Shown: positions 2,154 to 21,634 of the stretch, in pieces
Layout of the letters: each line of letters begins with the position of its first letter
Position numbering within the stretch: position 1 is the first letter of the stretch
Assembly (NCBI GenBank): GCA_016234155.1
Contig: JACRGZ010000013.1
Coordinates: 1 to 32,555, forward strand
Direction: 5' to 3'
Source of the DNA: Nitrospirota bacterium
Lineage (GTDB): Bacteria; Nitrospirota; 9FT-COMBO-42-15; HDB-SIOI813
Length of the DNA stretch: 32,555 bases
Made by a program: the position numbers and the translations under genes
The notes under the pieces: generated by a model
The model's database searches: none
Told to the model about the DNA's origin: nothing
Seen by the model: the letters and a program-made list of their open reading frames with translations, nothing else

Positions 2154-3631
2154 TCCTTTGAGTGATAACAGGTAAGTCTCCACCGGTCATATAGTTTTAC
2201 GGCGTCCTGTTCGGCGATTTTAGGGTTAAATGTCTTTGCAGCAGGAGTGAGCCTTTCCACAGATGATACCCCCTGCCAGACCCTCCGGCTGAGACCGGCC
2301 AGGAAGGCGACACCGAGGGCAATGGAGTCCCCTTCCCTTGCCTTGTTCAAGGGTCTGCGCAGAATATCTGCCTGAAACTCTAAAAGATAGGGTATGTCCG
2401 CCACCTTACCGTTTGCAATAATCCTTTTTAGGGGTATACGCCCGTCTGCCAGTACTACGTTGATGGTATCTTTTACCAGGAATGCGATAGATTCTACAGC
2501 AGCTCGTACCATATCCTCCCTTGCCGTAGAAGATTTAAGCCCGTATATACAGGTTGTATTGTTAGTATCCCGGTAAGGGGAGCCGGCCCCTGTGATGGAC
2601 GGGAACATGAATAAACGGCCTGCAGATGCCCTGCATAACTTATCAATATCATCATTCTGTTTGATAATACCGAGGTTGGTTTGCATCCACTCTAATATTG
2701 AGCCGGCCGAGTTTATGACACCTTCAAGCATGTATGTAGTATTATCGCCATTTGACCAGGCGATAGTCGTCAGAAGTCCGGGCAATAAAAATATCTTCTT
2801 CCCTGTATTGGTGAGGATAAAACCGGTACTATTATAATTTATATGGACATCCCCTTCCTGAAACAGGCCGTGTCCGATAAGTGAGGCCTGATGTTCTGCT
2901 GTAGATGCATGAATTGGTATGGTCTGTCCTTCTATTAATGCATCTCCATAGTGGACTGATGTAGGGAGGATAGACGGGAGGATCTCAGGAGGTATATTGA
3001 ATAGTTCAAGCAGTTCTTTATCCCATGATTTTGTAAAAATATTACACAGGAGTGTCTGTGCGGCGCTTGCGTGGTCTATTGTAAATGCCGCCCCTTTTGT
3101 AAGGTGCCACATCAGGTATGTATTTACCGGGCCGCACAGCAGTCGCCCTTTTTCCAGCAGCTTTTGTGCTGACTTTGTATTCTCTAATACCCACTTTATC
3201 TTTGATGCGGAATAGTAAGGGGATAAGATAAGTCCTGTCCGTTCACGGACTGTCTCACGATAATCCACCTTCTCTTTGCATATCTCTGTTCCACGGGGAT
3301 CGGTATAGCTTATGGAATTATAGATTGGTTTGCCTGTATCTTTATCCCAGAGTATTATTGTAGAGCGTTGTCCTGCAAATCCTGCAGCGGCTATCTGACT
3401 CTTTTTATTCCCTATCTTTTTAAATAATACCTTTATTGCGTTCTGCTGGCTTTTCAGTATATCGGCGGGTCTGTATTCAATCCAGCCTGATTTAAGCCAG
3501 CCTGATTTAAGATAGATGGGCCGCAGGGGGTGTTCCCCCTGGGCGATAATTTTACCTTTATTATCAATGAGAGTTGCCTTTGAATTTAAAGAGCCTTGCT
3601 CAAGTGCAAGGATATATTGGCCCATGGGCAT
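2132..3631 (-). CDS. FGGY-family carbohydrate kinase, glycerol-kinase-like but divergent
   Basis: The 499-aa ORF is colinear with GlpK-type kinases (GKPIYN, SPYYSASKIKW, LLTTIAW, EGVINSAGS, ITGAGSPY, ALGVAFLAG). Several positions I recall as catalytic or substrate-binding in GlpK are replaced: DQGTT->EQGSL, QRET->QRST, GDQQAA->AEHQAS, VDGG->ANGK. Confidence 0.7.
   Translation of the reverse strand: MPMGQYILALEQGSLNSKATLIDNKGKIIAQGEHPLRPIYLKSGWLKSGWIEYRPADILKSQQNAIKVLFKKIGNKKSQIAAAGFAGQRSTIILWDKDTGKPIYNSISYTDPRGTEICKEKVDYRETVRERTGLILSPYYSASKIKWVLENTKSAQKLLEKGRLLCGPVNTYLMWHLTKGAAFTIDHASAAQTLLCNIFTKSWDKELLELFNIPPEILPSILPTSVHYGDALIEGQTIPIHASTAEHQASLIGHGLFQEGDVHINYNSTGFILTNTGKKIFLLPGLLTTIAWSNGDNTTYMLEGVINSAGSILEWMQTNLGIIKQNDDIDKLCRASAGRLFMFPSITGAGSPYRDTNNTTCIYGLKSSTAREDMVRAAVESIAFLVKDTINVVLADGRIPLKRIIANGKVADIPYLLEFQADILRRPLNKAREGDSIALGVAFLAGLSRRVWQGVSSVERLTPAAKTFNPKIAEQDAVKLYDRWRLTCYHSKEWSKNFP
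3482..3511 (-). repeat. Perfect tandem 15-bp duplication inside the FGGY kinase CDS
   Basis: CCAGCCTGATTTAAG occurs twice on the plus strand, giving the duplicated LKSGW-LKSGW in the protein. Confidence 0.9.
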
Positions 3632-3762
3632 TTGTCCCTATTTAACTGTGAAATTCGGCTTATAATAACAATCTGGGTTTGCAAAGTCAACGATAGACTT
3701 TTCCGTATTTGTGAACTGAGGCACTTAGCTAATTTTTCAACCTCCATCTGACGATATAACTA

Positions 3763-3787
3763 TAGCCTGCCCTGAACTTGTTTCAGG
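3763..3787 (-). repeat. R3 hairpin module (CCCTGAAACAAGTTCAGGGCAGGCT), copy a
   Basis: It is 25/25 identical to the reverse complement of 22607-22631 and contains a 7-bp-stem hairpin CCCTGAA/TTCAGGG. Intergenic, upstream of the GGDEF-EAL gene. Confidence 0.9.
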
Positions 3788-3825
3788 GTCATCGTACAAA
3801 AACCCCGGTGGCTGGCCTGAAGAGC

Positions 3826-5538
3826 ATGAAAAAATCAATTACAAAACGGCGAAAAAGGATGGAGTCAGAAGAGCTCTACCGCTCGGTAATCGAGCAGGCA
3901 TCAGAGGGGATACTGCTCGTTTCAATTAACAATAAAAAGATCATAGAGGGGAATGCGGCCTTTAACAATCTGCTCGGCTACAGCAGCGGGGAAGTTGTTA
4001 ATATGAGCCTCTACGACATAATTGCAGAGGGGCGTGAGACTATAGACCTTGAGGTTGATCGTATCCTTCGGGAAAAAAGAGATATAAGGCTGTACCACAG
4101 GGACGGGTCTTACGTCTATGCAGAATTATCGGCTAACAGTATTACTTATAATGACCAGGATACGATGTGCCTTGTTGTGCATGATATAACTGAAAGGAAA
4201 CGTTTTGAAGAACAACTGATGTTTCAGGCAAATCACGACTCACTGACCGGGCTTGCCAACAAGGGCCTCCTCGAGGACCGCCTTAGTCAGGCTACAGCCT
4301 ACCAGAAGCGGAAAAATAACATACTTGCGATAATGCTCCTTGACCTCGACCGCTTTAAGGTCATTAACGATACCCTTGGCCACCCTGCCGGGGACATCCT
4401 TTTACAGGCTGTTGCTGAACGGTTGAAGGTATCTGTGAGGAGCTATGATACCGTGGCACGCCTCGGAGGAGATGAGTTTGTCATCGTTGTTACAGATGTC
4501 TTAAACACCAATGATGTCATTACTATTGCAAAGAATATCCTGAATCTCTTTACCACACCATTTACGCTAAACGGACAGGAGTTATTTGTTACAGCAAGTA
4601 TCGGGATATCTGTCTATCCATTTGACGGTGATAGCGTTGAACACCTCTTGATGAAGGCAGATACGGCAATGTATCATTGTAAGGGGCAGGGCGGGAACAA
4701 CTATCAGTTTTTTGCTGAAGATATGAACATAAAGGTGAGAGACAGGCTTACGCTGGAAACAAGCCTGCGAAAGGCCATTGATCAGGAAGAACTGATCCTC
4801 TATTATCAGCCTAAGGTGGATCTGACAACAGGGCGTATCTGCGGGATGGAGGCCTTAATAAGGTGGCGGCGTGCAGACGGCAAATTGGTCTTACCCGCGG
4901 AATTTATACCATTGGCTGAAGAGACGGGATTAATAATCCCCATAGGTGAATGGGTGCTGCGTAATGCCTGCAGGGACACCAGACGGTTGCTGGATAAGGG
5001 ATACTCCGGACTACGTGTTTCGGTAAATCTCTCCGGCCGTCAATTTGCGCAGCAAAACCTGGTTGAGATGCTGAAGGATGCCCTGACGGAGAGCGGCCTC
5101 GATCCGGGACACCTTGAATTAGAGCTGACTGAGAGCGTCCTGATGAAGGATGAAGAAGGGATTATCAAAAAGCTTTGTGCAATGAAAGAAACAGGGGTAA
5201 TGCTGTCTATTGACGATTTTGGCACGGGTTATTCATCCCTGAGTTATCTGAAAAGATTCCCGATAGACGAGATCAAGATTGACAGGTCATTTGTTCAGGA
5301 CATCACAAACAATCCTGATGGCGCTGCAATCGTTAATGCAATCCTGGCAATGGCGCATACACTCAAATTGCGGGTTGTCGCCGAAGGGGTCGAGACTATG
5401 GAGCAGGCGATGTTCTTAGTCGAGCACCGGTGCGAAGAGATGCAGGGGTACTACTTTAGCCCGCCGTTGCCGCTTGAGGCATTTGAAGAGATGCTCCGTT
5501 CCGGGAAGCAACTGACCGTAGCATCTCAGCACATCTGA
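3826..5538 (+). CDS. PAS-GGDEF-EAL c-di-GMP signalling protein
   Basis: PAS-like N-terminus. The GGDEF domain has an intact ARLGGDEFVIV motif. The EAL domain has EALIRW, DDFGTGYSSLSYL and the Q..GYYFS tail. The track start TTG 3778 lies inside repeat R3, so the first ATG (3826) is preferred. Confidence 0.85.
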   Translation: MKKSITKRRKRMESEELYRSVIEQASEGILLVSINNKKIIEGNAAFNNLLGYSSGEVVNMSLYDIIAEGRETIDLEVDRILREKRDIRLYHRDGSYVYAELSANSITYNDQDTMCLVVHDITERKRFEEQLMFQANHDSLTGLANKGLLEDRLSQATAYQKRKNNILAIMLLDLDRFKVINDTLGHPAGDILLQAVAERLKVSVRSYDTVARLGGDEFVIVVTDVLNTNDVITIAKNILNLFTTPFTLNGQELFVTASIGISVYPFDGDSVEHLLMKADTAMYHCKGQGGNNYQFFAEDMNIKVRDRLTLETSLRKAIDQEELILYYQPKVDLTTGRICGMEALIRWRRADGKLVLPAEFIPLAEETGLIIPIGEWVLRNACRDTRRLLDKGYSGLRVSVNLSGRQFAQQNLVEMLKDALTESGLDPGHLELELTESVLMKDEEGIIKKLCAMKETGVMLSIDDFGTGYSSLSYLKRFPIDEIKIDRSFVQDITNNPDGAAIVNAILAMAHTLKLRVVAEGVETMEQAMFLVEHRCEEMQGYYFSPPLPLEAFEEMLRSGKQLTVASQHI

Positions 5539-5658: not shown

Positions 5659-6750
5659 CTACAGTCTTGCAGCGCTGTAAAACATATACCCTCCGATACC
5701 CATAAATATTATATTTGCCAGCCAGGCCGAAAGTATGGCCGGCAGATAGCCTGAATAACCTATATGTAGTGAGAAGGAGAAGGAAACCCAGTATAAGACA
5801 CTTATGGCGATGCATAATCCAACTCCGCCGGCAATCCCGCCGTACCTTTTTATATGGAAGGCTATGGACATCCCCAGGACAGACATTATAAACCCTGCAA
5901 AAGGGAAGGATGTCTTTGCGTACAGGTCTACTGCAAGCCTTTTAATCTCGTAGCCCTCTTTTTTTATCTTCTCGATATAATTTTTTAACGTTGCAAACCT
6001 TGTCTCGGATGCCTGGATTGTAACATGCCTGAAGTCCTGCGTTTTAAAGGGAAATGCTACAGGAAGTCTGTCAAAGTTATAGATCTTTAATCCCCCTGCC
6101 TTTTCTCCCTCCCCCCAAGTCCTCCTTATACCTCCCAGTAAAAACCACTCCCCGTTCTCTGATACAGCCCCTTTTGCTGAGATACTCTCCCTGATCTGAA
6201 AATCAGGTGTCAGATAGTATACATTGACCCGCCCCATTACCTTTTTGTCAGGGTCTATAAACCTGACATTGTAAATAGTATAGTTGTCAGCCTTAAGCCA
6301 GAGGCTGTCTTCTTTAAAGAACATCTCCCTCGGTCTTGCCTCAGCCATTCTCTTTATATCTTCAGCCTTCCTGTTTGTTATCGGCATGAGGGAATCATTG
6401 AGGAAAAATGCTGCAACTGATATGACAACTGTTATTGCAAGGACAGGGAAGGTGATGTTCCGGACACTTAATCCCCCTGAACGCATTGCTGTCACCTCAT
6501 TGTATTTTGCAAAGAGCCCTAAATTGAGAAACGATGCAAAGAGGATGGAGAGCGGGATTATGTAGTAGACAGCCTGCGGTAACCGTAAAAGGAAATAGCC
6601 ATATATGGTGTGAAGATCAGTATGGGCCTTCGTAAAATCACTCAGATTTTCAAAAACATCTACTACCATGTAAAGGATTGTCAGACCTGCTGCAATAAGG
6701 AGCAGTATTTTAATAAATTCTATGGTTACGTATCTTGAAATAATTTTCAT
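5659..6750 (-). CDS. lptG: LPS export ABC permease LptG (YjgP/YjgQ family)
   Basis: 363 aa, MKIISRYV.. N-terminus, multi-TM with a periplasmic beta-jellyroll-like insert. It is the second gene of an adjacent pair of paralogous permeases. Confidence 0.8.
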   Translation of the reverse strand: MKIISRYVTIEFIKILLLIAAGLTILYMVVDVFENLSDFTKAHTDLHTIYGYFLLRLPQAVYYIIPLSILFASFLNLGLFAKYNEVTAMRSGGLSVRNITFPVLAITVVISVAAFFLNDSLMPITNRKAEDIKRMAEARPREMFFKEDSLWLKADNYTIYNVRFIDPDKKVMGRVNVYYLTPDFQIRESISAKGAVSENGEWFLLGGIRRTWGEGEKAGGLKIYNFDRLPVAFPFKTQDFRHVTIQASETRFATLKNYIEKIKKEGYEIKRLAVDLYAKTSFPFAGFIMSVLGMSIAFHIKRYGGIAGGVGLCIAISVLYWVSFSFSLHIGYSGYLPAILSAWLANIIFMGIGGYMFYSAARL

Positions 6751-6763
6751 CTGTAAATCCTGT

Positions 6764-7861
6764 TCATTTTCTTGCCACCACCGCTATAGAGAAACCGGCG
6801 AGCATGAGGGATACGGCGACAGTAGCCCACGCTGCCCAGAAAGGGTGTATAAAGCCTTCGACGGCTAATATCTCAAACCCGCTGTCTATAACATAATAAC
6901 AGAATACAATAGCGATACTTACTATAAAACCGGCGAACCTGCTTGAAAACTTAGACAAGATACCAACAGGCGCTCCAAGGATCCCGAGGACTAAAGCTGC
7001 TGCCGGGAGTGAGAATTTCTTATGGAACTCTATCATCGCCCTCCTGTATTCCCTGTATTTCCCCTGATCTAAATCCTCTTTCATCTTTTTCCTTAATTCA
7101 CCAAGTCCAATCCCCCATACATCTTTAAACAAACGCACCCTTTCTATTGAATTAGCCGCATCTAATCTGATGTAATATGTGGAAAATGAGGCCATCTGGT
7201 ATCTTTCTCTGTCTTCTAACTCAAAATATATACGGCCGTTTTCAAGTTTCAGGAAGATGTTCGCCGTGGATGGGTCATTAAGGAATTTGCCTCGCCGGGC
7301 TGTTATAATCTTTGAATCCTTCGATGATCTGTCAGAGATGAGAACGTCATTTAATGTGTCAGCTTCCTCTACTTTTTTTACATACACTAACAGATTAAAG
7401 AGGTTGTTAAATACCCCTTCCTGAAGGCCAAGATTCCTCTCACTTTTAAGGGCCTCATAGGATTGTAATCTTATATACCGGTTTCCCATAGGTTGAAGGA
7501 CAGTGGATGAGAGCAAGGCAAGTAAAAAGGCTATCAGCGAGAATATAAGCACAGGGGGGAGCATACGGTAAAGACTGATGCCTGCTGACCTCATGGCTGT
7601 TATCTCATGGTCAGTAGAGAGCCTGCTGAAGGTCAATATGGATGAGATTAGGACAGAGAGTGGTATTGCCAGCACTAAGAAAAGGGGTATAATGAATGGT
7701 GCAAATTTGACAAGGCCGAAGAAACTTATCCCAGTATCAGCGGAGAGCCGCGAGAATTTCATCATCTGCTGCATCAGAAAGGCTGACAGCAGGACTGCGA
7801 TGCTGAGCATAAAGGCGATGGTAAGTTCACGGAGGATGTATCTGTCGAGTATCTTAGTCAT
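6764..7861 (-). CDS. lptF: LPS export ABC permease LptF (YjgP/YjgQ family)
   Basis: 365 aa with the MTKILDRYILRE.. N-terminus typical of LptF/LptG. It is the first gene of the pair, 13 nt upstream of lptG. Confidence 0.8.
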   Translation of the reverse strand: MTKILDRYILRELTIAFMLSIAVLLSAFLMQQMMKFSRLSADTGISFFGLVKFAPFIIPLFLVLAIPLSVLISSILTFSRLSTDHEITAMRSAGISLYRMLPPVLIFSLIAFLLALLSSTVLQPMGNRYIRLQSYEALKSERNLGLQEGVFNNLFNLLVYVKKVEEADTLNDVLISDRSSKDSKIITARRGKFLNDPSTANIFLKLENGRIYFELEDRERYQMASFSTYYIRLDAANSIERVRLFKDVWGIGLGELRKKMKEDLDQGKYREYRRAMIEFHKKFSLPAAALVLGILGAPVGILSKFSSRFAGFIVSIAIVFCYYVIDSGFEILAVEGFIHPFWAAWATVAVSLMLAGFSIAVVARK

Positions 7862-7915: not shown

Positions 7916-7953
7916 ACCCTCCCCCTTGATGGGGGAGGGTTAGGGTGGGGGTG
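7916..7953 (+). repeat. R1 G/C-run hairpin module, copy 2 (immediately upstream of the fdhE-like start)
   Basis: ACCCTCCCCC-TTGAT-GGGGGAGGG-TTA-GGGTGGGGGTG. Confidence 0.85.
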
Positions 7954-7956
7954 AAA

Positions 7957-9012
7957 ATGATGTCAAGAAACTTTTCAATATACAAGTCCTACCTTGACGA
8001 GCGGGGAAAACTGCATCCATTCATGCAGGACATGATCCTCTTCTACAAGGGGCTGATTGATATATGGGGTGAAGCCTCCCCTGACGACCTTTCTCCTTTG
8101 TTCCCCCCCCTCACTCAAGTTTTCCCCCCTTTTTTAAAGGGGGGTGAGGGGGGATTAAAGTGTATGCTCAACAAGGATAAAATCAAAGCCTTGGATTTTA
8201 CCAACAGCATAAGCGTCGCAAAGAAAATATTTAAATTATTCGAACAGGAGAAGAAAGATGCGGATATTGAATGTGCCGGCGCATCACCAGATGCCATTAT
8301 CGAATTTATAAAAGATGGCCTTGCCAGTGAGGAGAGATATAAAAACGCTATCCTTAAATGGATACTCAAGCCATCTTTTGAATACACAATAGGTAAGCTA
8401 AAAATAATTGGCCAAACTACCCTCCCCCCCTCGTTCATATCCCCTCTCCCCACCCCCCTCCATATCCTCCCCCCACACGGGGGGGAGGAAAAAAGCTTGC
8501 CCCCGAAGTATTTATCGGGGGGTGGGGGGGGTGATTTGCAGGGGGAGAGGGGAAGGGTGAGGGGGAGCAAATCGGTGAGGGGGAGCGTAGGCGGCATATG
8601 CCCCCTGTGCGCCTCCCCTCCAGGCATGGCCCTTGTCTATGCCCCTGGTGATGGAACATCTGATCAGCGCCTCCTCTCCTGCTGCTTCTGCGGATACAGG
8701 TGGCCTTATTCCATGACCGGCTGTCCGGCATGTGGCAATGACAGTCCGGAAAAGTTTGGTTTCTTTGTCGGGGATTCATCCCCCAAAGAAAGCCCAAAAG
8801 AACCCCCAAAAGAACCCCCAAAAGAAACTAATGACCAGGGTGTGCGTGCCGTAAGCTGTGAGGAGTGCAAGACTTATCTGAAGACCATCTTCATAGGATG
8901 CCGTGGTGACAACAGAGCCCCTGAGGACTTGGACATGGACATAGAAGACGTAGCTACCCTCCACCTCGATATAATAGCCAACCAGCGTGGGTACAAAGCC
9001 CTCTGTGGGTGA
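7957..9012 (+). CDS. FdhE-like zinc-ribbon protein carrying in-frame repeat insertions
   Basis: The C-terminal half follows the FdhE pattern: CPLC..(R)LLSCCFCGYRW..CPACG...VSCEECKTYLK...DMDIEDVATLHLDI...G. The track start GTG 7945 lies inside repeat R1, so ATG 7957 is preferred. No formate dehydrogenase genes are in the window. Confidence 0.65.
   Translation: MMSRNFSIYKSYLDERGKLHPFMQDMILFYKGLIDIWGEASPDDLSPLFPPLTQVFPPFLKGGEGGLKCMLNKDKIKALDFTNSISVAKKIFKLFEQEKKDADIECAGASPDAIIEFIKDGLASEERYKNAILKWILKPSFEYTIGKLKIIGQTTLPPSFISPLPTPLHILPPHGGEEKSLPPKYLSGGGGGDLQGERGRVRGSKSVRGSVGGICPLCASPPGMALVYAPGDGTSDQRLLSCCFCGYRWPYSMTGCPACGNDSPEKFGFFVGDSSPKESPKEPPKEPPKETNDQGVRAVSCEECKTYLKTIFIGCRGDNRAPEDLDMDIEDVATLHLDIIANQRGYKALCG
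8103..8153 (+). repeat. R1b nested G/C palindrome inside the fdhE-like CDS
   Basis: The outer stem pairs CCCCCCTCAC (8105-8114) with GTGAGGGGGG (8144-8153). The inner stem pairs CCCCCCTTT (8124-8132) with AAAGGGGGG (8136-8144). The 51 nt equal 17 codons. Confidence 0.8.
8441..8552 (+). repeat. R2 composite G/C palindromic element, copy a (inside the fdhE-like CDS; G/C-run flanks extend to ~8418-8595)
   Basis: The core CCTCCATATCCTCCCCCC-ACAC-GGGGGGGAGG-AAAAAAGCTTGCCCCCGAAGTATTTATCGGGGGGTGGGGG..ATTTGCAGGGGGAG matches the reverse complement of 26709-26820. The outer arms CCCCTCTCCCC and GGGGAGAGGGG pair. Confidence 0.85.
8782..8829 (+). repeat. In-frame tandem 12-nt repeat x4 (PKES-PKEP-PKEP-PKET) in the fdhE-like CDS
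   Basis: CCCAAAGAAAGC CCAAAAGAACCC CCAAAAGAACCC CCAAAAGAAACT. Confidence 0.9.
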
Positions 9013-9064
9013 ATGAGTGAATGGGTGAATGAGTAAAACCAATGATCCCATCTACCCATCTACC
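9007..9064 (+). repeat. T3 hairpin (GGGTGAAT/GAGTGAAT octamers), copy a
   Basis: GGGTGAATGAGTGAATGGGTGAATGAGTAAAACC .. CCCATCTACCCATCTACC. The fdhE-like stop TGA (9010-9012) lies inside it. Confidence 0.8.
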
Positions 9065-9068
9065 GATT

Positions 9069-9219
9069 GAGGCTCTTGCAAAAGTCCCCATTTTGTCATT
9101 CCCGCAGGGATTCTGAGCGGGAATCTGGTTCTAAGTGCTTGAAAAAGCATATCCCTCCCCGAGTGCTTCTATCGGGGATAGAAGATTTCGGGGATGACAT
9201 AGACTTTTGCAAGAACCTC
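9069..9219 (+). mobile_element. M1 MITE-like element, copy a (151 bp, 17-bp TIRs, GATT flanking duplication)
   Basis: The element runs GAGGCTCTTGCAAAAGT ... ACTTTTGCAAGAACCTC, with GATT on both flanks (9065-9068 and 9220-9223). The right ~70 nt are nearly identical to copy b. Internal hairpin ATTCCCGC/GCGGGAAT. Confidence 0.85.
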
Positions 9220-9245
9220 GATTTACCCATCTACTCTCAAAGCAC

Positions 9246-9275
9246 TTGCAAAAGAAAATAGCGCTATGTTAATAT
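9246..9275 (+). promoter_or_regulatory. Candidate sigma-70 promoter upstream of the HMGL-Cache/mdh/fumarase block
   Basis: TTGCAA (9246-9251), an 18-nt spacer, then TAATAT (9270-9275). The ATG at 9285 has no SD, so the mRNA would be nearly leaderless. Confidence 0.35.
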
Positions 9276-9284
9276 TCCATTACC

Positions 9285-11153
9285 ATGTCCGGTCTTGTAA
9301 AAGAAAAGAATCTTTTAACCAGGGCTGCCTATCACTATGAGATTGTAGATGTAAAAGGGCCAAATCTGTTCAGGGAGTTCTTCCCTTATAATGAGGTCCC
9401 AAAGATCCCATTTAATCACCGTATTGTTCCGATGTATACCCCTGATGAGTTCTGGATTACTGATACCACCTTCAGGGATGGGCAGCAGGCAAGGCCGCCG
9501 TACGGTGTCGAACATATAGTAAAGATCTATGACATGCTCCACAGGTTGAGCGGCCCTAATGGTGTGATAAGACAGTGCGAGTTCTTTCTTTACAGCAAGA
9601 AGGACAGGGAGGCTGTAGAGAAGTGTCTTGAGAAGGGGTACAGGTATCCTGAGATAACGGGGTGGATAAGGGCGGTCAAGGAAGATTTCCAGATCGTCAG
9701 GGAGGCGGGCCTTAAAGAGACCGGTATCCTTACATCATGCTCTGACTACCATATCTTTTTAAAGCTTGGAACGACGAGGCGTGAGGCGGCCGACAAATAC
9801 CTTGATATAGTCAGGACGGCACTGGATGCCGGCATTGTGCCCCGCTGTCACCTTGAAGATATCACCCGTGCAGACTTCTATGGGTTTGTAATCCCCTTTG
9901 TCCAGAGGCTGATGGAGATCTCTGAGCAGAGCGGGATACCGGTCAAGATAAGGGCATGTGACACAATGGGGTATGGTGTCCCTTATATGGGCGCCTCAAC
10001 ACCCCGCGGGATACCGGAGCTTATCTATGGTCTTGTGCACTATGGCGGTGTTCCTTCAGAGCAGCTTGAGTGGCACGGGCATAATGATTTTCACAAGGCC
10101 CTGATAAATGCAACAACGGCATGGGTATATGGATGCAGTGCGGCTAACGGGGTCATATTCGGCTTTGGGGAGAGGACCGGCAATACCCCGATTGAGGCAT
10201 TAGTTATGGAGTATATATCATTGCGGGGGGATACAAATGGTGTAGATACAACCGTGATTACAGAGATAGCTGAATATTTCAGAAAGGAGCTCGGTGTCCT
10301 GATACCCTCAAATTACCCCTTTGTCGGCGCTGACTTTAATAACACAAGCGCCGGTATCCACGCGGACGGGGCGCTGAAGAACGAAGAGATATATAACATA
10401 TTTGATACTGTAAGACTCCTTAAGAGACCGATGGGGATTACTATTACGGACAAGTCCGGGGTTGCCGGTATTGCATACTGGGTGAACAGTCACCTGGGAT
10501 TGGAGGATGACCGTAAGGTGGATAAAAAACACCCCGGGATTGAAAAGATATACAGATGGGTTATGGAACAGTATGAAATGGGGAGGCTTACGGCCATATC
10601 GTCTGATGAGATGTTTACTCAGGCCAAGAAGCATCTGCCGGAATATTTTGGTTCAGAGCTTGACCGCCTGAAGAAGAGGGCTGAGGATATTATGGTGCCT
10701 CTGGTAGAGGATGTTGTTGATGATGGTTCATTTAAGACTATGAGTTTCGGGCAGATGGAGGCGATTATGCAGAAGCTGGTGGATGATAATCCGTTTATAC
10801 AGTTTGCCTATGTTGTTAACATGGACGGACGGCTTCTGACAAAAAATATAACCCAGTCGGCCGATAGGGCAAGATATGAGAGATTTGGCGTCGGACAGGA
10901 TTTCTCGAACAGGCCATGGTTTATCGAGCCGCTGAAGAGTGGTAATACCTTTGTCACCGATTTCTACAAGTCTACAATAACCGATGCCCTCTGTATAACG
11001 GTTTCTACCCCTGTCAGGAATGAGACAGGGGAGGTGAAGGGTGTATTTGGTGTTGATTTAAAGTTTGAGGATGTGGTAAAGATTGACAGGAGGATGGAGT
11101 TTGGCAGGGTATCTGCAGAGGAGAAGGGTGGAGTTGAAGGGGAGATAATATGA
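9285..11153 (+). CDS. HMGL-like (DRE-TIM) 2-oxoacid:acetyl-CoA condensing enzyme (homocitrate / Re-citrate synthase-like) fused to a C-terminal Cache/PDC-like domain
   Basis: ITDTTFRDGQQ, CDTMGYG, EWHGHNDFH and GERTGN are the catalytic signature of the IPMS/homocitrate/Re-citrate synthase family. The last ~170 aa show a Cache-like pattern (YVVNMDGRLL.., NRPWF, GVFGVDLKFEDV). It is followed by mdh and fumarase. Confidence 0.7.
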   Translation: MSGLVKEKNLLTRAAYHYEIVDVKGPNLFREFFPYNEVPKIPFNHRIVPMYTPDEFWITDTTFRDGQQARPPYGVEHIVKIYDMLHRLSGPNGVIRQCEFFLYSKKDREAVEKCLEKGYRYPEITGWIRAVKEDFQIVREAGLKETGILTSCSDYHIFLKLGTTRREAADKYLDIVRTALDAGIVPRCHLEDITRADFYGFVIPFVQRLMEISEQSGIPVKIRACDTMGYGVPYMGASTPRGIPELIYGLVHYGGVPSEQLEWHGHNDFHKALINATTAWVYGCSAANGVIFGFGERTGNTPIEALVMEYISLRGDTNGVDTTVITEIAEYFRKELGVLIPSNYPFVGADFNNTSAGIHADGALKNEEIYNIFDTVRLLKRPMGITITDKSGVAGIAYWVNSHLGLEDDRKVDKKHPGIEKIYRWVMEQYEMGRLTAISSDEMFTQAKKHLPEYFGSELDRLKKRAEDIMVPLVEDVVDDGSFKTMSFGQMEAIMQKLVDDNPFIQFAYVVNMDGRLLTKNITQSADRARYERFGVGQDFSNRPWFIEPLKSGNTFVTDFYKSTITDALCITVSTPVRNETGEVKGVFGVDLKFEDVVKIDRRMEFGRVSAEEKGGVEGEII

Positions 11154-11301
11154 GGTAAAATCCTAAGCACTAAATCCTAAATTCTAAACAATATCAAATG
11201 ACCAAAATCCAAAATTCAAAACAGCAAGGCTTTAGAAGTTTTGAACATTTGGATTTAGGATTTTGAATTTGTTTAGGATTTAGATATTAGGATTTAGGAT
11301 T
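11154..11301 (+). repeat. T1 long imperfect hairpin built from AATCCTA-type heptamers, copy a
   Basis: The left arm is AAATCCTAAGCACTAAATCCTAAATTCTAAACAATATCAAATGACCAAAATCC. The right arm is ..GAATTTGTTTAGGATTTAGATATTAGGATTTAGGATT. It starts right after the stop at 11153. The arms are shared with 31572-31711. Confidence 0.85.
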
Positions 11302-11318: not shown

Positions 11319-12269
11319 TTGGGCGGACGGAATAAAATAACCATTATCGGCGCCGGCAATGTAGGGGCCTCTACGGCCCAGAGGGTGATGGAGAAATCCC
11401 TGGGGGATGTGGTGTTAATAGACGTTGTAGAAGGGATCCCTCAGGGTAAGGCGCTTGATATCTTAGAAGCTGCCCCTTTAAGCAATGCCGATGTAAGTGT
11501 CACGGGAACAAATAGTTATGATGAGACCGCAGGGTCTGATATTATTGTTATAACGGCAGGACTTGCAAGAAAACCCGGTATGAGCCGGCGGGATCTGTTA
11601 GAAAAAAATGCCAGGATAGTAAGGGATGTTACTGCAGAGGCTGTAAGACACTCACCTGACGCAATACTTATCGTTGTAACAAACCCCATGGATCTTATGA
11701 CATCTGTATCATGGAACGTCTCGGGTTTTCCAAGTCATCGTGTGATAGGGATGGGTGGTGTGCTTGATTCATCCAGGTTCAGATGTTTTATTGCCTCCGA
11801 ACTTAATGTATCAGTAGAGAATATACATGCCTTTGTACTTGGCGGTCATGGAGACCTCATGGTGCCGCTGCCGAGATTTTCCACCGTCGCCGGTGTCCCG
11901 ATAACTGAGATATTGTCAAATGCCCGGATAGACAAGATGGTGGAGCGTACAAGGTCTGGCGGCGGCGAGATCGTGGGGCTTCTTAAGACGGGGAGCGCCT
12001 ATGTGGCGCCTGCGGCGGCGATTACAGAGATGGTGGAGGCTATTATTCTTGACAAAAAGAAGATAATGCCATGCGCAGTGTATTTAGACGGGGAGTATGG
12101 GGTGAAAGACATGTTTGTTGGTGTGCCAGTAAAACTGGGGAAGAAAGGTGTAGAGGAGATTATTGAGATAAAGTTTACGGATGAGGAGAGGGAGGCGTTT
12201 CTTAAGTCTGTTGACAGGGTCAGGAGCGGAGTAGATGAGGTAAAACAAATCCTAAATCCTAAATCCTAA
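11319..12269 (+). CDS. mdh: Malate dehydrogenase (LDH-like family)
   Basis: [13 protein letters not shown] Rossmann motif, VVTNPMD, and ~316 aa. The TTG start sits 5 nt after AAGGAGG (11307-11313). The last 8 codons and the stop lie in a repeat. Confidence 0.85.
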
Positions 12270-12377
12270 ATTATTGGTAAGGGGTCAAGGGGTCAAGGAT
12301 TCAAGGGGTCAAGTGATATTAATTCACTTGAATCCTTGACCCCTCGACCCCTTGAACCCTAATTTAGGATTTTACCG
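12243..12377 (+). repeat. Nested composite hairpin: T1-type outer arms around T2 (GGGGTCAA octamer) inner arms
   Basis: The sequence runs AAATCCTAAATCCTAAATCCTAAATT .. GGGGTCAAGGGGTCAAGGATTCAAGGGGTCAAGTGA-TATTAA-TTCACTTGAATCCTTGACCCCTCGACCCCTTGAACCC .. TAATTTAGGATTTT. Confidence 0.85.
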
Positions 12378-12393
12378 AAGAGGGTTCTTAGGG

Positions 12394-13239
12394 ATGCGGC
12401 GCATACATTACAACGATATAGCGGACAAGATCAGTGACATCTGTATAGAGGCTAACTACAGCCTCAGCGGGGATGTCATTGCAGCGTATGAGAAGGCCCT
12501 TGAGATGGAAAAATCCCCCCTTGGCCAGGAGGTGCTGAGGCAGATTATGGAGAACTCGCAGATCGCCGGTAAGGAAGGTATGCCCCTCTGTCAGGATACG
12601 GGGCTTGCGGTCTTTTTTGTTGAGCTTGGTCAGGATGTCTCTATAGCCGGCGGACTCCTGAGTGATGCGATAAATGAAGGGGTGAGACAGGGGTACAGCA
12701 AGGGTTATCTCAGGAAATCTGTTGTGGAAGAGCCTATCTTTGGCAGGAGAAATACCACTGATAATACCCCGGCTATTATCCATACTGAAATTGTTCCGGG
12801 TGACAAAATCAAGGTTACACTTGATGTTGCCGGTGGTGGGTGTGAAAATATGGCGGCGTTAAAGATGTTCCGTCCGGCAGACGGGATTGAAGGGGTAAGG
12901 CAGTTTGTCATTGAAACGGTGAGAAATGCAGGTGCGAATCCATGTCCGCCTGTTGTTGTCGGAGTTGGTATCGGGGGGGATTTTGAGAAGGCTGCCATTT
13001 TGGCGAAGAGGGCATTGCTGAGGCCGGTTGGACAGCCGCATCCCAAGATGGAGGTGGCTGCTGTAGAGGAGGACCTCTTAAAGAGGATAAATCAACTTGG
13101 CATCGGACCTGTAGGTCTGGGTGGCAATATAACCGCCCTTGCGGTTCATATAGAGATACACCCATGCCATATCGCCAGTCTGCCGGTGGCGGTAAATTTA
13201 GGATGTCATTCGAGCAGGCATAAAAGCATGGTTGTATGA
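12394..13239 (+). CDS. Class I (Fe-S) fumarate hydratase, alpha (N-terminal) subunit
   Basis: PLCQDTGLAVFFVELG and GGGCENM are motifs of the Fe-S hydro-lyase alpha type. The track start TTG 12352 is inside the T2 hairpin, so ATG 12394 is preferred. Confidence 0.8.
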   Translation: MRRIHYNDIADKISDICIEANYSLSGDVIAAYEKALEMEKSPLGQEVLRQIMENSQIAGKEGMPLCQDTGLAVFFVELGQDVSIAGGLLSDAINEGVRQGYSKGYLRKSVVEEPIFGRRNTTDNTPAIIHTEIVPGDKIKVTLDVAGGGCENMAALKMFRPADGIEGVRQFVIETVRNAGANPCPPVVVGVGIGGDFEKAAILAKRALLRPVGQPHPKMEVAAVEEDLLKRINQLGIGPVGLGGNITALAVHIEIHPCHIASLPVAVNLGCHSSRHKSMVV

Positions 13240-13799
13240 AAATAACTACACCCCTTACAGACAATGTTATCACAGGACTTAAGGCAGGTGACAGGGTAGA
13301 GATAACAGGCGTCTTATATACTGCCCGGGATGTGGCGCACAAGCGGCTTGTCCAAATGATTAAAGAGGGGGAGAAGTTACCCTTTGATCTCAGAGGACAG
13401 ATTATCTATTTTGTGGGTCCGACACCTGCAAAACCAGGGATGCCAATAGGTTCTGCCGGTCCTACAACAAGCGGGAGGATGGACCCCTATTCCCCTTATC
13501 TTATTGAGCAGGGTCTTAAAGGGATGATCGGAAAGGGTGGGAGGTCTAAAGAGGTCGTTGATGCAATGGCTGAACATAAGTGCATATACTTTGCCGCTGT
13601 CGGCGGCGTTGCGGCGCTCCTTTCAAAGAAGATAAAGAAGGCAGAGGTGATTGCCTTTGAAGACCTCGGGACAGAGGCAGTCAGGAGATTAGAGGTAGAG
13701 GACTTCCCGGCGATCGTAATAAATGATATTTACGGTGGAGACCTCTACAAAGAAGGCGTAGCCAGGTATTCCAGCCCCCCGAGTAGCCGCATCCTTTAG
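13236..13799 (+). CDS. Class I (Fe-S) fumarate hydratase, beta (C-terminal) subunit
   Basis: GPTTSGRMD and IGKGGR are motifs of the beta type. It has an ATGA overlap with the alpha subunit gene. Confidence 0.8.
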   Translation: MKITTPLTDNVITGLKAGDRVEITGVLYTARDVAHKRLVQMIKEGEKLPFDLRGQIIYFVGPTPAKPGMPIGSAGPTTSGRMDPYSPYLIEQGLKGMIGKGGRSKEVVDAMAEHKCIYFAAVGGVAALLSKKIKKAEVIAFEDLGTEAVRRLEVEDFPAIVINDIYGGDLYKEGVARYSSPPSSRIL

Positions 13800-13929: not shown

Positions 13930-14033
13930 GCTGCAGGCATAGCATATTCACATAAGGTTTATGCAAAATTCGTGCTTAAAATCCTTTACTTGAATTTTCG
14001 TTTGTGTTATATTTCATTTTATCTAATAAGCCA

Positions 14034-14594
14034 ATGGATATTTCAAGAAAATGGAAGTATATCGGGATAATCTGTTTTCTCTTATTTGTTGTCATTCTTA
14101 CAGGGCTTTTAAAGGGGAAAGAGGAAGGGAAGGGTGAGCGGTTAGAGACAGCCGTGCTTGGAGATATAGTGCAGCGCATAGAGAATTTTCACCTTATACG
14201 TTTTAAAGGTGAAGATGTGGAGTGGGAAATAGCGGCAAAAAAGGCGGTGATACATAACGGAGAAGATGATGCCTCACTTCAGGAGATAGGGATTACTCAT
14301 AACCCGTATAATGGAGAGCCAATCAGGCTTACAGCAGAGAGAGGAAGATACAACATAGATTCAAATGCCTTTCTTTTAGAAAAGGTAGAGAGGGAAGTAG
14401 ATGTAAAGATTGGCGAAGGTCTTACGATAAATGTCGGCAGCCTTTCGTGGTCTGAAGATGACAGGGAGATATGGGGTCCCGGGAAGGTGCTGTTAGTGGG
14501 CCAAAGATTTATACTTGAAGGAGAGGACCTTATAGCGAATCTGGATAAAGGGGTGTATGAGATTAAAAATAACATCCGGGCGGCTATGTGGTAA
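14034..14594 (+). CDS. lptC: LPS export protein LptC-like (single N-terminal TM anchor)
   Basis: MDISRKWKYIGIICFLLFVVILTGLL anchor followed by a beta-rich domain. It lies immediately upstream of lptA-lptB-rpoN, the canonical order. Confidence 0.6.
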   Translation: MDISRKWKYIGIICFLLFVVILTGLLKGKEEGKGERLETAVLGDIVQRIENFHLIRFKGEDVEWEIAAKKAVIHNGEDDASLQEIGITHNPYNGEPIRLTAERGRYNIDSNAFLLEKVEREVDVKIGEGLTINVGSLSWSEDDREIWGPGKVLLVGQRFILEGEDLIANLDKGVYEIKNNIRAAMW

Positions 14595-14633
14595 TTGGGG
14601 TGGTAATTGGGTAATGTCAAATGTCAAAATTCA
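14589..14633 (+). repeat. Tandem 12-mers (TGGTAATTGGGG/TGGTAATTGGGT) followed by heptamers (AATGTCA x2, AAATTCA)
   Basis: Read directly. The lptC stop TAA (14592-14594) is inside the first 12-mer. Confidence 0.8.
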
Positions 14634-14635
14634 AA

Positions 14636-14786
14636 GAGGCTCTTGCAAAAGTATAAAAATGTTGTCATTCCCGCATGGTTTAAGCGGGAATATAGTGTTT
14701 TATTACAGAAAATCATATCCGTCCCCGAGTGGCTTCTATCGGGGATAGAAGATTTCGGGGATGACATAGACTTTTGCAAGAGCCTC
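14636..14786 (+). mobile_element. M1 MITE-like element, copy b (151 bp, perfect 17-bp TIRs, CAAA flanking duplication)
   Basis: The element runs GAGGCTCTTGCAAAAGT ... ACTTTTGCAAGAGCCTC, with CAAA on both flanks (14632-14635 and 14787-14790). It lies between lptC and the body of lptA. Confidence 0.85.
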
Positions 14787-14810
14787 CAAAGTTCAAATTA
14801 TTTTAGGATT

Positions 14811-15323
14811 TTGATTTTCATCTCTGGATTTTGTTTAATATTTTTATTTAATTCTTCAACAGTAAGGGGAGAAGAGTCGCCGGTTACGAGGTTCATCAGT
14901 CAGGGGGAGGAAGGGGCGCTCTCTATAACATCCAGGAAGATGACCCTCAAGAACCAGGAGAATACGATACTGTTTGAAGGGGATGTTGTTTTAGAGCGCG
15001 GCTCAATGAGGTTAAAGGCCAGGAGGGTAGAAGCTGTGTTCACATCGCTGCCGGAGGGAGAGCAGGGTTTATTTGAGAGTGCAGATAAAAAAAGAGGGCT
15101 TTCTACTATTACTGCTACAGGGGATGTCGAATTTATCCAGGGTTCCAGAACTGTCCTTTCAAACAAGGTCATTTATTTTAAAAAAGATGAGAGGATGGTC
15201 TTTACAGGCTCACCGAATATCCGGGAAGGTAAGGATGAACTCAAGGGTGAAAAGATCACAGTCCATATACTGGAGGACAGGGTTGTGGTAGAGGGAGGGG
15301 AAGCAATTATACATCCCAGGTAG
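14811..15323 (+). CDS. lptA: LptA (OstA-like) periplasmic LPS transport protein; 5' end interrupted by the M1 element, functional start uncertain
   Basis: OstA-N-like body (ITSRKMTLKNQENTILFEGDVVLERGSMRLKARRVE.., ATGDVEF.., TGSPNIREGKDELKGEKI). The track ORF 14607..15323 reads through the 151-bp M1 repeat. TTG 14811 is the first conventional start after M1 but has poor SD spacing. See findings. Confidence 0.7.
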   Translation: MIFISGFCLIFLFNSSTVRGEESPVTRFISQGEEGALSITSRKMTLKNQENTILFEGDVVLERGSMRLKARRVEAVFTSLPEGEQGLFESADKKRGLSTITATGDVEFIQGSRTVLSNKVIYFKKDERMVFTGSPNIREGKDELKGEKITVHILEDRVVVEGGEAIIHPR

Positions 15324-15347
15324 GGCTAAGTTAGGGTGAAGAAAGAT

Positions 15348-15378
15348 GTAGGGACAGACCTTCAGGTCTGTCCAAAAT
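15348..15378 (-). repeat. T4 palindromic 31-mer, copy b (inverted), between lptA and lptB
   Basis: It is 31/31 identical to the reverse complement of 13848-13878. Confidence 0.9.
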
Positions 15379-15391
15379 GGCGGCAGGTTAA

Positions 15392-16165
15392 ATGGCAACG
15401 CTTAAAGTAGAAAATATAGAGAAGATTTACAAGGGCCGTAAGGTAGTGGATAAGGTAAGCCTCACATTAAACAGGGGTGAGGTGGTAGGTATTTTAGGGC
15501 CTAATGGGGCTGGTAAGACCACGATCTTTTCCATTATTATAGGTATCTTAAAACCCTCTGCCGGCCGGATATTCTTAGATGATACCGAGATAACCTGCCT
15601 CCCTACTTATAAGCGTGCACGCCTTGGGATATGCTACCTTCCCCAGGAACCATCGATTTTCAGGAAACTTACAGTAGAAGAGAATATTATGGGAGTCCTC
15701 GAATTTCAAGACCTGTCTTCATACGAACGTCATGACAGATTAAATCAGCTTATCAGGGAACTCAATGTAGCCCATCTTGCCAGGCAGCCGGCCAATACCC
15801 TTTCGGGTGGTGAGAGGAGGCGGGTAGAGATTGCCCGTTCGCTTGCCTCATCGCCCACATTTATCTTTCTCGATGAGCCCTTTGCCGGTATAGACCCCAT
15901 TTCTGTAACAGACCTGCAACAGATAATCCTTCAGTTAAAGGACAAAGATATAGGTATATTAATAACGGATCACAATGTTAAGAATACACTTGAGGTCTGT
16001 GACAGGGTATATATATTAAATGAGGGTATTATTTTAAAATCAGGAACTCCGTATGATATAGCTGCAAGCGCTGAGGTTAGATCTACCTATTTGGGAGAAA
16101 GGTTCAGGTTAGAACCAGAGCATACTGTGCCGGAGCATATCCCAGAGCATATAATAGACAGATAG
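15392..16165 (+). CDS. lptB: LPS export ABC transporter ATPase LptB
   Basis: Walker A GPNGAGKTT, signature LSGGERRRVEIAR, Walker B FIFLDEPFAGIDP, and position between lptA and rpoN. Confidence 0.9.
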   Translation: MATLKVENIEKIYKGRKVVDKVSLTLNRGEVVGILGPNGAGKTTIFSIIIGILKPSAGRIFLDDTEITCLPTYKRARLGICYLPQEPSIFRKLTVEENIMGVLEFQDLSSYERHDRLNQLIRELNVAHLARQPANTLSGGERRRVEIARSLASSPTFIFLDEPFAGIDPISVTDLQQIILQLKDKDIGILITDHNVKNTLEVCDRVYILNEGIILKSGTPYDIAASAEVRSTYLGERFRLEPEHTVPEHIPEHIIDR

Positions 16166-16179
16166 TAGGGGGTCAGAAT

Positions 16180-17631
16180 ATGCATACGAAATTAGATATC
16201 AGGCTTGCACAGAAGCTTATAATGACCCCTCAGCTTCAGCAGGCCATAAAGCTCCTTCAACTCTCAAAACTTGAGTTACAGCAGATAATAAATCAGGCGC
16301 TCATGGAAAACCCTTTCCTTGATGAGATCCCGGAAGAAACAGCAGAGGCGGATGAAGATGAAATGTATAAGACAACTACCACTTCGGAGAGTGACAGTAA
16401 AGTAGAGGTTGAAGCAGAACAAGTCACGCCACTCGATGGAATGGACCTGAAGTGGGATGACTATCTCTCTGATGACGGAGTTGACACCAAAGAGTTAAGC
16501 TATTTTAAGGATAGCGACGAAGATGCCATGACATATGAGCAGACAGTGTCCAGGCCCTCTTCACTCTCTGAACACCTGTCATGGCAGCTTAATCTTTCTA
16601 CTTCTGATCCGGTTATCAAAAATATAGGCGAGGCCATAATTGGCAATATAGATGATAATGGTTATCTTCAAGCGACTATGGAAGAGATAAGCGGGATATG
16701 TGGTGTATCAAAAGATATAGTTCTTGGTGTATTGACGTTAATGCAGGGATTTGACCCGCCCGGTATAGCCGCAAGGGATATGAGGGAGTGTCTTCTTATT
16801 CAGATTGCGCAATTAGGTTTTAAAGACACCATTGTTGAGGCAATTGTCTCTGAACATCTCCCGGATTTTGAGAAAAAACGCTTCCCTGTTATAGCGCGTA
16901 AGCTGGGTATTACATTAGATGATTTATCGCATGCCATCAAGATTATAGAAAGGCTTGAACCAAAACCAGGGAGGTCATTTTATTCCTCTGATAATCTTTA
17001 TATAGTCCCGGATGTATTTGTTATAAAATACGAAGGTGAGTATCTCGTTATATTGAGTGATGATGGATTGCCAAGGCTCAAACTGAACCCGACATACAAG
17101 CGGATGCTTAAAAAGGGGAGTGGCCTTGCTGAAGATGCCCGCGGCTACTTAGAGGATAAGTTCCGTTCTGCCATCTGGATGATAAGGAGTATAGAACAGC
17201 GCAACAGGACTATATATAAGGTGGCGCAGAGCATCGTCAGATGTCAGGAGGAATTCCTCGAAAAGGGGATTAATTACCTGAAACCACTGACACTGAGAGA
17301 GATTGCAGATGATATCAATATGCATGAATCCACTGTCAGCCGTGTTACTAACAATAAATATATATGTACACCTCAGGGCATTTTTGAGTTGAAATACTTT
17401 TTCAGCAGCGGTCTGTCAACGAGTGATGGAAACAGTTGTTCGTCAACAAGTGTCAGAGATATGCTCCAGAGGCTAATCGCAGATGAAAACCACAAAAAAC
17501 CTTACAGTGATCAACAGATAATGGAGTTTCTGAAAGGACAGCAGATAGAGATAGCAAGGAGAACGGTTGCCAAGTACAGAAAAGAGTTAAAGATTCCTTC
17601 TGCAAGCAGGCGGAGAAAACTATTAATATGA
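16180..17631 (+). CDS. rpoN: RNA polymerase sigma-54 factor
   Basis: N-terminal LQQAIKLLQLSKLEL region I, an acidic linker, and a C-terminal RpoN box ARRTVAKYR. Confidence 0.95.
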   Translation: MHTKLDIRLAQKLIMTPQLQQAIKLLQLSKLELQQIINQALMENPFLDEIPEETAEADEDEMYKTTTTSESDSKVEVEAEQVTPLDGMDLKWDDYLSDDGVDTKELSYFKDSDEDAMTYEQTVSRPSSLSEHLSWQLNLSTSDPVIKNIGEAIIGNIDDNGYLQATMEEISGICGVSKDIVLGVLTLMQGFDPPGIAARDMRECLLIQIAQLGFKDTIVEAIVSEHLPDFEKKRFPVIARKLGITLDDLSHAIKIIERLEPKPGRSFYSSDNLYIVPDVFVIKYEGEYLVILSDDGLPRLKLNPTYKRMLKKGSGLAEDARGYLEDKFRSAIWMIRSIEQRNRTIYKVAQSIVRCQEEFLEKGINYLKPLTLREIADDINMHESTVSRVTNNKYICTPQGIFELKYFFSSGLSTSDGNSCSSTSVRDMLQRLIADENHKKPYSDQQIMEFLKGQQIEIARRTVAKYRKELKIPSASRRRKLLI

Positions 17632-19243: not shown

Positions 19244-19435
19244 ATGAGTCAGAACAAAAAATATTACGCAAGAGACATATGCACCCTTTTTGATATTTCA
19301 AAGGCTACCCTTTTCAGATGGGAAAGCGATGGATTGATCTCCAATATTAAGAGAGACTGGCGGAACTGGCGCATGTACAGTGAAGAGAATATTGAAGAGA
19401 TCAAGAAGATAATAGAGGCAAAGGGAAAGAAATAA
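19244..19435 (+). CDS. Small MerR-family helix-turn-helix protein (DNA-binding domain only)
   Basis: 63 aa. The sequence (Y)ARDICTLFDISKATLFRWESDGLI....R..NWRMYSEENIEEIKKI matches the MerR N-terminal HTH pattern. Its TAA overlaps the pilM ATG (TAATG). Confidence 0.6.
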   Translation: MSQNKKYYARDICTLFDISKATLFRWESDGLISNIKRDWRNWRMYSEENIEEIKKIIEAKGKK

Positions 19436-21056: not shown

Positions 21057-21058
21057 AA

Positions 21059-21628: not shown

Positions 21629-21634
21629 GCAAAA

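Follow-up and report, generated by a model that had tools for sequence, protein, structure and literature searches.

The best-described counterparts of the gene discussed here are two characterised Re-face citrate synthases (Re-citrate synthases), SYN_02536 from Syntrophus aciditrophicus strain SB (Kim et al., 2013, J Bacteriol 195:1689) and CKL_0973 from Clostridium kluyveri (Li et al., 2007, J Bacteriol 189:4299), whose sequences are among those of the characterised Re-citrate synthases printed in Table S1 of PMC12016533. Our gene lies in a 32,555-nucleotide (nt) stretch of DNA from a Nitrospirota bacterium (GenBank assembly GCA_016234155.1, contig JACRGZ010000013.1, positions 1 to 32,555), the whole of which we call the window. 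A previous reading, made from the sequence only, had described its product as a condensing enzyme of the tricarboxylic acid (TCA) cycle fused to a cytoplasmic Cache-like domain. The analysis reported here gives good support to reading the product of this gene as a cytoplasmic citrate synthase of the Re-face kind (EC 2.3.3.3), of the C. kluyveri/S. aciditrophicus type. Among long-form Re-citrate synthases the gene is an ordinary case, and the role of the tail is the only new question that it raises.

SYN_02536 has the same architecture as the window protein (629 versus 622 amino acids, AA), with a barrel, a subdomain, a helical linker and a single Cache/PDC tail in which the R, W, F, Y and D pocket residues are identical in the two proteins. 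The differences are in the phylum (Thermodesulfobacteriota versus Nitrospirota), in the position of the gene, which in S. aciditrophicus is between a UvrD-like helicase gene and aspS-hisS whereas the window gene adjoins malate dehydrogenase (mdh) and fumarase genes, and in the presence of ATP-citrate lyase genes in the genome of the window protein. CKL_0973 is a short form: it belongs to the same catalytic family and has the same motifs, and its printed sequence is collinear with residues 20–455 of the window protein, but it stops where the linker would begin and lacks a Cache module. The parts of the window gene are as follows.

9285..11153, + strand: predicted long-form Re-citrate synthase gene, 622 AA, frame open throughout; 59% identity without gaps to SYN_02536 over residues 16–599
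9342..10649, + strand: catalytic region, residues 20–455, a DRE-TIM/HMGL-like barrel plus the post-barrel subdomain common to short-form Re-citrate synthases (Pfam, invariant residues, fold matches)
9456-10274, + strand: part of the barrel matched by Pfam HMGL-like, residues 58–330 (E 1.7e-30)
10650..10787, + strand: helical linker, residues 456–501 (predicted helices 458–478, 481–484 and 488–501; in the alignment short forms stop at its start)
10788..11105, + strand: single cytoplasmic Cache/PDC module, residues 502–607 (Pfam, profile matches, fold; no transmembrane segment)

Identity of the enzyme

SYN_02536 was recovered by searching 201 Syntrophales genomes with its 49 printed N-terminal residues (98% match), and the 629-AA protein read from the matching genome agrees with the printed sequence. 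BLASTP aligns the window protein with it over 584 residues; the catalytic parts of the two proteins are 63% identical and the tails 47%, and Pfam gives both proteins the same layout, HMGL-like and MCP-like_PDC_1. The catalytic region of 95 rows, CKL_0973 not among them, gave a quick IQ-TREE tree with long outer branches, for which the LeuA of the window's genome served as outgroup. In this tree the window protein pairs with another Nitrospirota sequence (Shimodaira–Hasegawa-like approximate likelihood ratio test, SH-aLRT, 96) and falls together with SYN_02536 in an 84-row core clade (SH-aLRT 99), apart from the LeuA outgroup.

The motifs by which the sequence-only reading had recognized a DRE-TIM/HMGL condensing enzyme are indeed present (TDTTFRDGQQ at residue 59, HGHNDFH at 264 and GERTGN at 295), and residues R64, D65, E191, H264, H266, E296 and N300 are invariant across the alignment of the family. 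In the AlphaFold2 (AF2) model, built from a 43-row alignment (predicted local distance difference test, pLDDT, 90.5; predicted template modelling score 0.75), residues 53–456 superpose on the catalytic domains of homocitrate synthase (HCS), methylthioalkylmalate synthase, isopropylmalate synthase (IPMS) and citramalate synthase (CMS) with Z scores of 30–34, the match to HCS 6ktq having a Z of 34.4. The LeuA-type regulatory domain that the sequence-only reading had set against its own proposal was not seen, Pfam giving no match to LeuA_dimer (PF08502) at E <= 1 in the 622-AA protein, and no match to Citrate_synt (PF00285). The enzyme would be expected to condense acetyl-CoA and oxaloacetate on a metal-dependent DRE-TIM barrel.

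The genome to which the window belongs (1.66 Mb, 70% complete) was compared with ten others from its family, four of them 98–100% complete. With the Citrate_synt profile, a full-length Si-citrate synthase turned up neither in the window's genome nor in the ten family genomes, where only AclA-type partial matches occur. The sole clear match in the window's genome is the C-terminal part of a 598-AA CoA_binding, Ligase_CoA and Citrate_synt protein, directly preceded by a Citrate_bind protein, and the pair is aclBA, a two-subunit ATP-citrate lyase.

Contig C171 (locus L122), 1922-3154: aclB (Citrate_bind)
Contig C171 (locus L122), 3313-5106: aclA (CoA_binding, Ligase_CoA, Citrate_synt)

Most genomes of the family have ATP-citrate lyase and the Re-type gene without a full-length Si-citrate synthase, and the long-form gene is found in eight of the ten, at 79–83% identity. 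In other Nitrospirota families a full-length Si-citrate synthase is present and the Re-type gene is mostly absent, some genomes carrying both. The window's genome also has an aconitase (1012 bits versus a cut-off of 612), sucCD, and, on contig C1 beside LeuC, a canonical LeuA with LeuA_dimer (3e-38). No Iso_dh-family gene was found in this genome, a result of little weight at its level of completeness. This groundwater Nitrospirota genome probably encodes no citrate synthase besides the one discussed here.

The protein could alternatively be another 2-oxoacid:acetyl-CoA condensing enzyme equipped with a sensor tail, making homocitrate, citramalate, isopropylmalate or some further product. Specificity cannot be given with certainty by sequence, and the protein has no NCBIfam equivalog: its top model is nifV with 130 bits versus a cut-off of 463, and the IPMS and HCS models are also far below their cut-offs. 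However, the catalytic part is 63% identical to that of a demonstrated Re-citrate synthase, whereas other HMGL paralogues in the genomes of relatives reach only 27–31%; a separate LeuA is present; and the family has no other citrate synthase that could be found, yet has aconitase. We therefore regard this alternative as very improbable, and the preference of the sequence-only reading for a Re-citrate synthase over a leucine or lysine pathway enzyme is upheld by the kinship with SYN_02536, the separate LeuA and the lack of a full-length Si-citrate synthase in these genomes.

The C-terminal Cache module and its pocket

Pfam places dCache_1 at residues 490–596 (53.3 bits versus a cut-off of 45) and MCP-like_PDC_1 at residues 494–596 (49.6 bits versus 27). 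The dCache_1 profile is covered only at positions 49–154 of 240, which is its distal half, and in the AF2 model, where the tail has a pLDDT of about 85–95, the tail is a single PDC module preceded by the linker helices 458–501. The counterpart of this module in a dCache_1 chemoreceptor sensor is the membrane-distal half, which binds the ligand; the transmembrane helices are missing here. No transmembrane segment was found in the 622-AA protein (highest Kyte-Doolittle 19-residue mean 1.0), which, because it lacks any hydrophobic segment, is soluble. The Cache module is here a cytoplasmic variant, without the typical (not universal) extracytoplasmic placement between transmembrane helices, and is fused to an acetyl-CoA-using enzyme.

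The PDC fold was taken to be a long N-terminal helix and a central antiparallel sheet with flanking helices, and the tail has this arrangement. Foldseek with the whole model gave TIM-barrel enzymes only, and the fold matches of the tail come from an exhaustive VIA structure search alone. In this search residues 456–610 match KinD 4jgo (Z 17.1, 164 aligned), followed by other Cache/PDC sensors, 5ere (Z 15.7), McpX 6d8v (15.1) and WalK 4ywz (14.4), and by DctB 2zbb (14.2) and CitA 2j80 (14.2, root-mean-square deviation 2.5 over 125). The presence of a C-terminal Cache/PDC domain devoid of membrane helices, claimed in the sequence-only reading, is thus confirmed by the Pfam cut-offs, by these folds (Z 14–17), by the Kyte-Doolittle values and by a profile made from 12 tails. 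With this profile the first PDB match is KinD (E 1.8e-9), then come Tlp3 (1.1e-6), PctA (2.9e-6) and PctB, and the cytoplasmic YkuI C-terminal domain is also matched. A phmmer search of the PDB with the tail of the window protein ranks the amino-acid chemoreceptors PctA, PctB and Tlp3 at the top (E ~2e-6 to 7e-6).

In the amino-acid motif of dCache_1AA sensors, R and W contact the ligand's carboxyl group while Y and D contact its amino group (Gumerov et al., 2022, PMC8915833). In PctA, R126A makes binding 61-fold weaker, and D173A or D173N abolish it (PMC8915833). The corresponding positions of the window gene are the following.

10911..10922, + strand: R543-P-W545-F546, corresponding to R126-x-W128-Y129 of PctA, the half of the amino-acid motif that binds the carboxylate (alignment to PctA 5ltx; codons checked)
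10965..10967, + strand: Y561, equivalent to PctA Y144, an amino-group contact (alignment to PctA)
11055..11057, + strand: D591, equivalent to PctA D173, an amino-group contact essential in PctA (alignment to PctA and profile alignment)

The R-to-Y spacing is 18 residues both in the tail and in PctA. In 193 long-form sequences, a redundant set from several phyla, R is kept in 98% of the tails, W in 100%, F in 99%, Y in 95% and D in 100%. R543 also aligns with R131 of KinD, the alanine mutant of R131 being the second PDB match of the tail profile. The distal module of the dCache_1AA sensors PctA, PctB and Tlp3 (PMC8915833) therefore resembles the tail in its PDC fold and in five pocket equivalents with the same spacing, but these sensors are periplasmic, double-module, flanked by transmembrane helices and wired to signalling domains, whereas the tail is single, cytoplasmic, C-terminal on an enzyme and devoid of an equivalent of Y121. 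Judged from these alignments, the pocket of the tail looks functional and suited to a carboxylate, probably one with an amino group. Conservation of the pocket residues in 95–100% of the tails suggests a carboxylate or amino-acid ligand and an allosteric feedback.

Long forms, short forms and the role of the tail

Fusion of this enzyme to a Cache tail is not new, contrary to what the sequence-only reading implied: besides the characterised S. aciditrophicus enzyme, thousands of database proteins share it. The 120 best of more than 8000 database matches all have HMGL-like, dCache_1 and MCP-like_PDC_1 and are 586–645 AA long, and after clustering at 50% both long forms of 593–615 AA and short forms of about 445–476 AA appear. 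In the species-representative genomes, the long form occurs in Nitrospirota, many orders of Thermodesulfobacteriota, Desulfovibrionaceae including Bilophila, Omnitrophota, Armatimonadota, Margulisiibacteriota and Lentisphaeria, and the short form in Bacillota, Planctomycetota (anammox) and Elusimicrobiota. These short-form relatives are 59–65% identical to the window protein in residues 20–455. The N-terminal SYN_02536 peptide matches 141 of the 201 Syntrophales genomes, mostly in open frames of 630–690 AA.

Many members of the family are named 'histone-lysine N-methyltransferase' by NCBI, long forms as well as the 449-AA short form of Oceanidesulfovibrio indonesiensis. They have no methyltransferase domain, and the name looks like a propagated mis-annotation. 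Other public names of homologues are 'cache domain-containing protein' and generic IPMS/HCS/CMS synthase.

In the tree, the basal groups of the core clade, whose branching order is not settled, are all long forms except for one short Oceanidesulfovibrio row, and most short forms are nested inside. The presence of the tail switches at least eight times, in a count that sets aside two rows, one cut by a contig end and one with an early stop. This pattern fits an early gain of the tail and its repeated loss, although the count cannot separate gain from loss and the outer branches are long. The orthologue of Lentisphaeria bacterium UBA1407 (L065) stops within the locus and aligns to query residue 505 only, and its sister sequence has a full tail; a frameshift or a decaying tail may account for it.

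The position of the tail recalls that of two regulatory domains of the superfamily, LeuA_dimer of IPMS and CMS and the RAM domain of Sulfolobus HCS, which are likewise C-terminal to barrel and subdomain, but whose fold is unrelated to that of the Cache tail. The C-terminal domains of the paralogous IPMS, CMS and archaeal HCS bind the amino-acid end product, and the organisms in which Re-citrate synthase has been studied use it to make glutamate; for these reasons, feedback by glutamate or a related amino acid is the most economical guess. Such feedback of an end-product amino acid on a pathway's first committed enzyme has been established for LeuA, CimA and HCS, and for the Cache tail it is an extrapolation. 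The tail would then be a cytoplasmic ligand-binding module modulating the activity of the enzyme, and its ligand a small metabolite with a carboxylate group, the likeliest kind being an alpha-amino acid such as glutamate or aspartate. An ATP-citrate lyase in the same genome would give a reason for such control, namely the avoidance of a futile cycle. The allosteric control of carbon entry into the cycle that the sequence-only reading suggested is a reasonable hypothesis, helped by the conserved pocket motif.

The tail may instead be a purely structural element of a Re-citrate synthase, joining subunits (for example two barrel dimers into a tetramer) or stabilizing the protein, with no effector. 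Dimerisation is mediated both by sensor Cache/PDC domains and by the LeuA regulatory domain, the recombinant S. aciditrophicus enzyme is reportedly a homotetramer of ~73-kDa subunits, hence full length with its tail, and the short form of C. kluyveri is active without a tail. When two copies of the tail were modelled as a complex the score was 0.00, without controls, which speaks neither for nor against dimerisation of the tail. However, the residues kept at 95–100% are, beyond core residues, the pocket residues of ligand-binding Cache domains, and R543 and D591 are not obviously needed in a structural element. We consider a tail without effector unlikely.

A slightly better case can be made for a tail that senses a carboxylic acid lacking an amino group (pyruvate, 2-oxoglutarate, oxaloacetate, malate or citrate) and reports carbon status directly. 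KinD is the top PDB match of the tail profile, and its distal module is said to have been solved with pyruvate near R131; DctB and CitA, which sense dicarboxylates and citrate, are matched in fold as well, and the first Tyr of the amino-acid motif is missing. Against this, Y561 and the invariant D591 correspond to amino-group contacts, D173A and D173N abolish binding in PctA (PMC8915833), and KinD has no Asp at the aligned position. A keto or hydroxy acid ligand, which KinD, DctB and CitA point to, would be the main alternative to an amino acid, although we think it rather unlikely.

Our proposal, made tentatively and as one possibility, is that the tail is an intracellular amino-acid sensor that binds glutamate, aspartate or a related compound via R543, W545, Y561 and D591, and throttles the Re-citrate synthase. 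The broader statement, a Re-citrate synthase whose tail binds a small carboxylate metabolite and tunes its activity, is on the whole the best explanation and is likely to be right.

Several observations weigh against this interpretation. First, the equivalent of PctA Y121 is not kept, the aligned position being D, E, T or Q in the 193 tails, and two divergent tails have K or H in place of R543 and F in place of Y561. Second, R-x-W-[YF] with a late Asp is common in dCache_1 profiles generally, so that its conservation may be partly structural. Third, short-form enzymes, such as the characterised C. kluyveri enzyme, work without the tail, which together with its repeated switches on the tree indicates that the tail is dispensable for catalysis. 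Fourth, no study of the role of the Cache tail, and no assay or ligand test of it, was found in the searchable literature. Finally, as regards the enzyme itself, the genome is incomplete, and an end of contig C76 bears a 36-residue Citrate_synt-like fragment.

This fragment belongs to a 61-AA open reading frame on the minus strand (L002, 1423-1608) that is truncated where the contig ends; its first 36 residues match the C-terminal end of the Citrate_synt profile below the cut-off, with 22 bits. Candidates for it are a strain variant of aclA, a citryl-CoA lyase and an Si-citrate synthase.

Gene neighbourhood and wider meaning

The region downstream of the gene contains the following features.

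11159..11301, + strand: long imperfect hairpin in the spacer that follows the citrate synthase gene and precedes mdh (RNA fold -51.3 kcal/mol, z -7.67, 0/200 shuffles as good)
11319..12269, + strand: malate dehydrogenase (Ldh_1_N and Ldh_1_C)
12352-13239, + strand: class I fumarase alpha (Fumerase, 3.7e-114)
13236-13799, + strand: class I fumarase beta (Fumerase_C, 1.1e-59)

The sequence-only reading had placed the gene at the head of a block with malate dehydrogenase and both fumarase subunits. The genes do adjoin, but a 165-nt spacer containing the 143-nt hairpin separates the citrate synthase gene from mdh, and the block is kept only in the nearest relative examined (82% identity), where it lies between an FdhE_C-like gene and lptC. 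The relatives at 69% and 64% identity lack the mdh-fumarase neighbourhood, as do most of 80 named loci, and a conserved operon was therefore rejected. This neighbourhood agrees with a TCA role, but it is lineage-specific and for that reason weak evidence; mdh-fumarase looks inserted, with the citrate synthase gene on one side and lptC on the other. The hairpin is composed of AATCCTA-like short repeats. No RNA family was found in the window with Rfam, and a promoter and terminator scan gave background levels. The matching DNA sequencing runs are mostly groundwater metagenomes, and no RNA run is listed.

Directly upstream, on the same strand, 7945-9012 encodes a 355-AA protein with a weak FdhE_C match only; this position is occupied by an FdhE_C gene in the 82% relative and by FdhD instead in the 69% relative. 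The intergenic region 9013-9284 contains short direct repeats (CCCATCTAC twice, plus GAATGAGT-like units) and an inverted repeat, CTCTTGCAAAAGTC ... GACTTTTGCAAGAAC. The ATG at 9285 has no clear Shine-Dalgarno sequence, though the N-terminus is conserved among the 82%-identity relatives. Elsewhere the window encodes a PAS-GGDEF-EAL protein (3778-5538), lptF/lptG (5659-7861), lptC-lptA-lptB-rpoN-rapZ (14004-18506) and the type IV pilus genes pilMNOPQ (19435-24876); the lpt-rpoN-rapZ block is syntenic in relatives.

These results correct the annotation of a gene publicly called a methyltransferase, a cache protein or a generic IPMS/HCS/CMS synthase. They also indicate that citrate is probably made by a Re-type enzyme in the Nitrospirota family of the window, which encodes ATP-citrate lyase as well. 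The point is wider than the window, as a chemoreceptor-type module with an almost intact amino-acid pocket is carried by a central-metabolism enzyme in thousands of anaerobes, and one such enzyme has already been purified. If the proposed role is true, this would be the first Cache domain shown to act as the allosteric regulatory domain of a metabolic enzyme, and in genomes with ATP-citrate lyase the tail could prevent an ATP-wasting cycle of citrate synthase and lyase.

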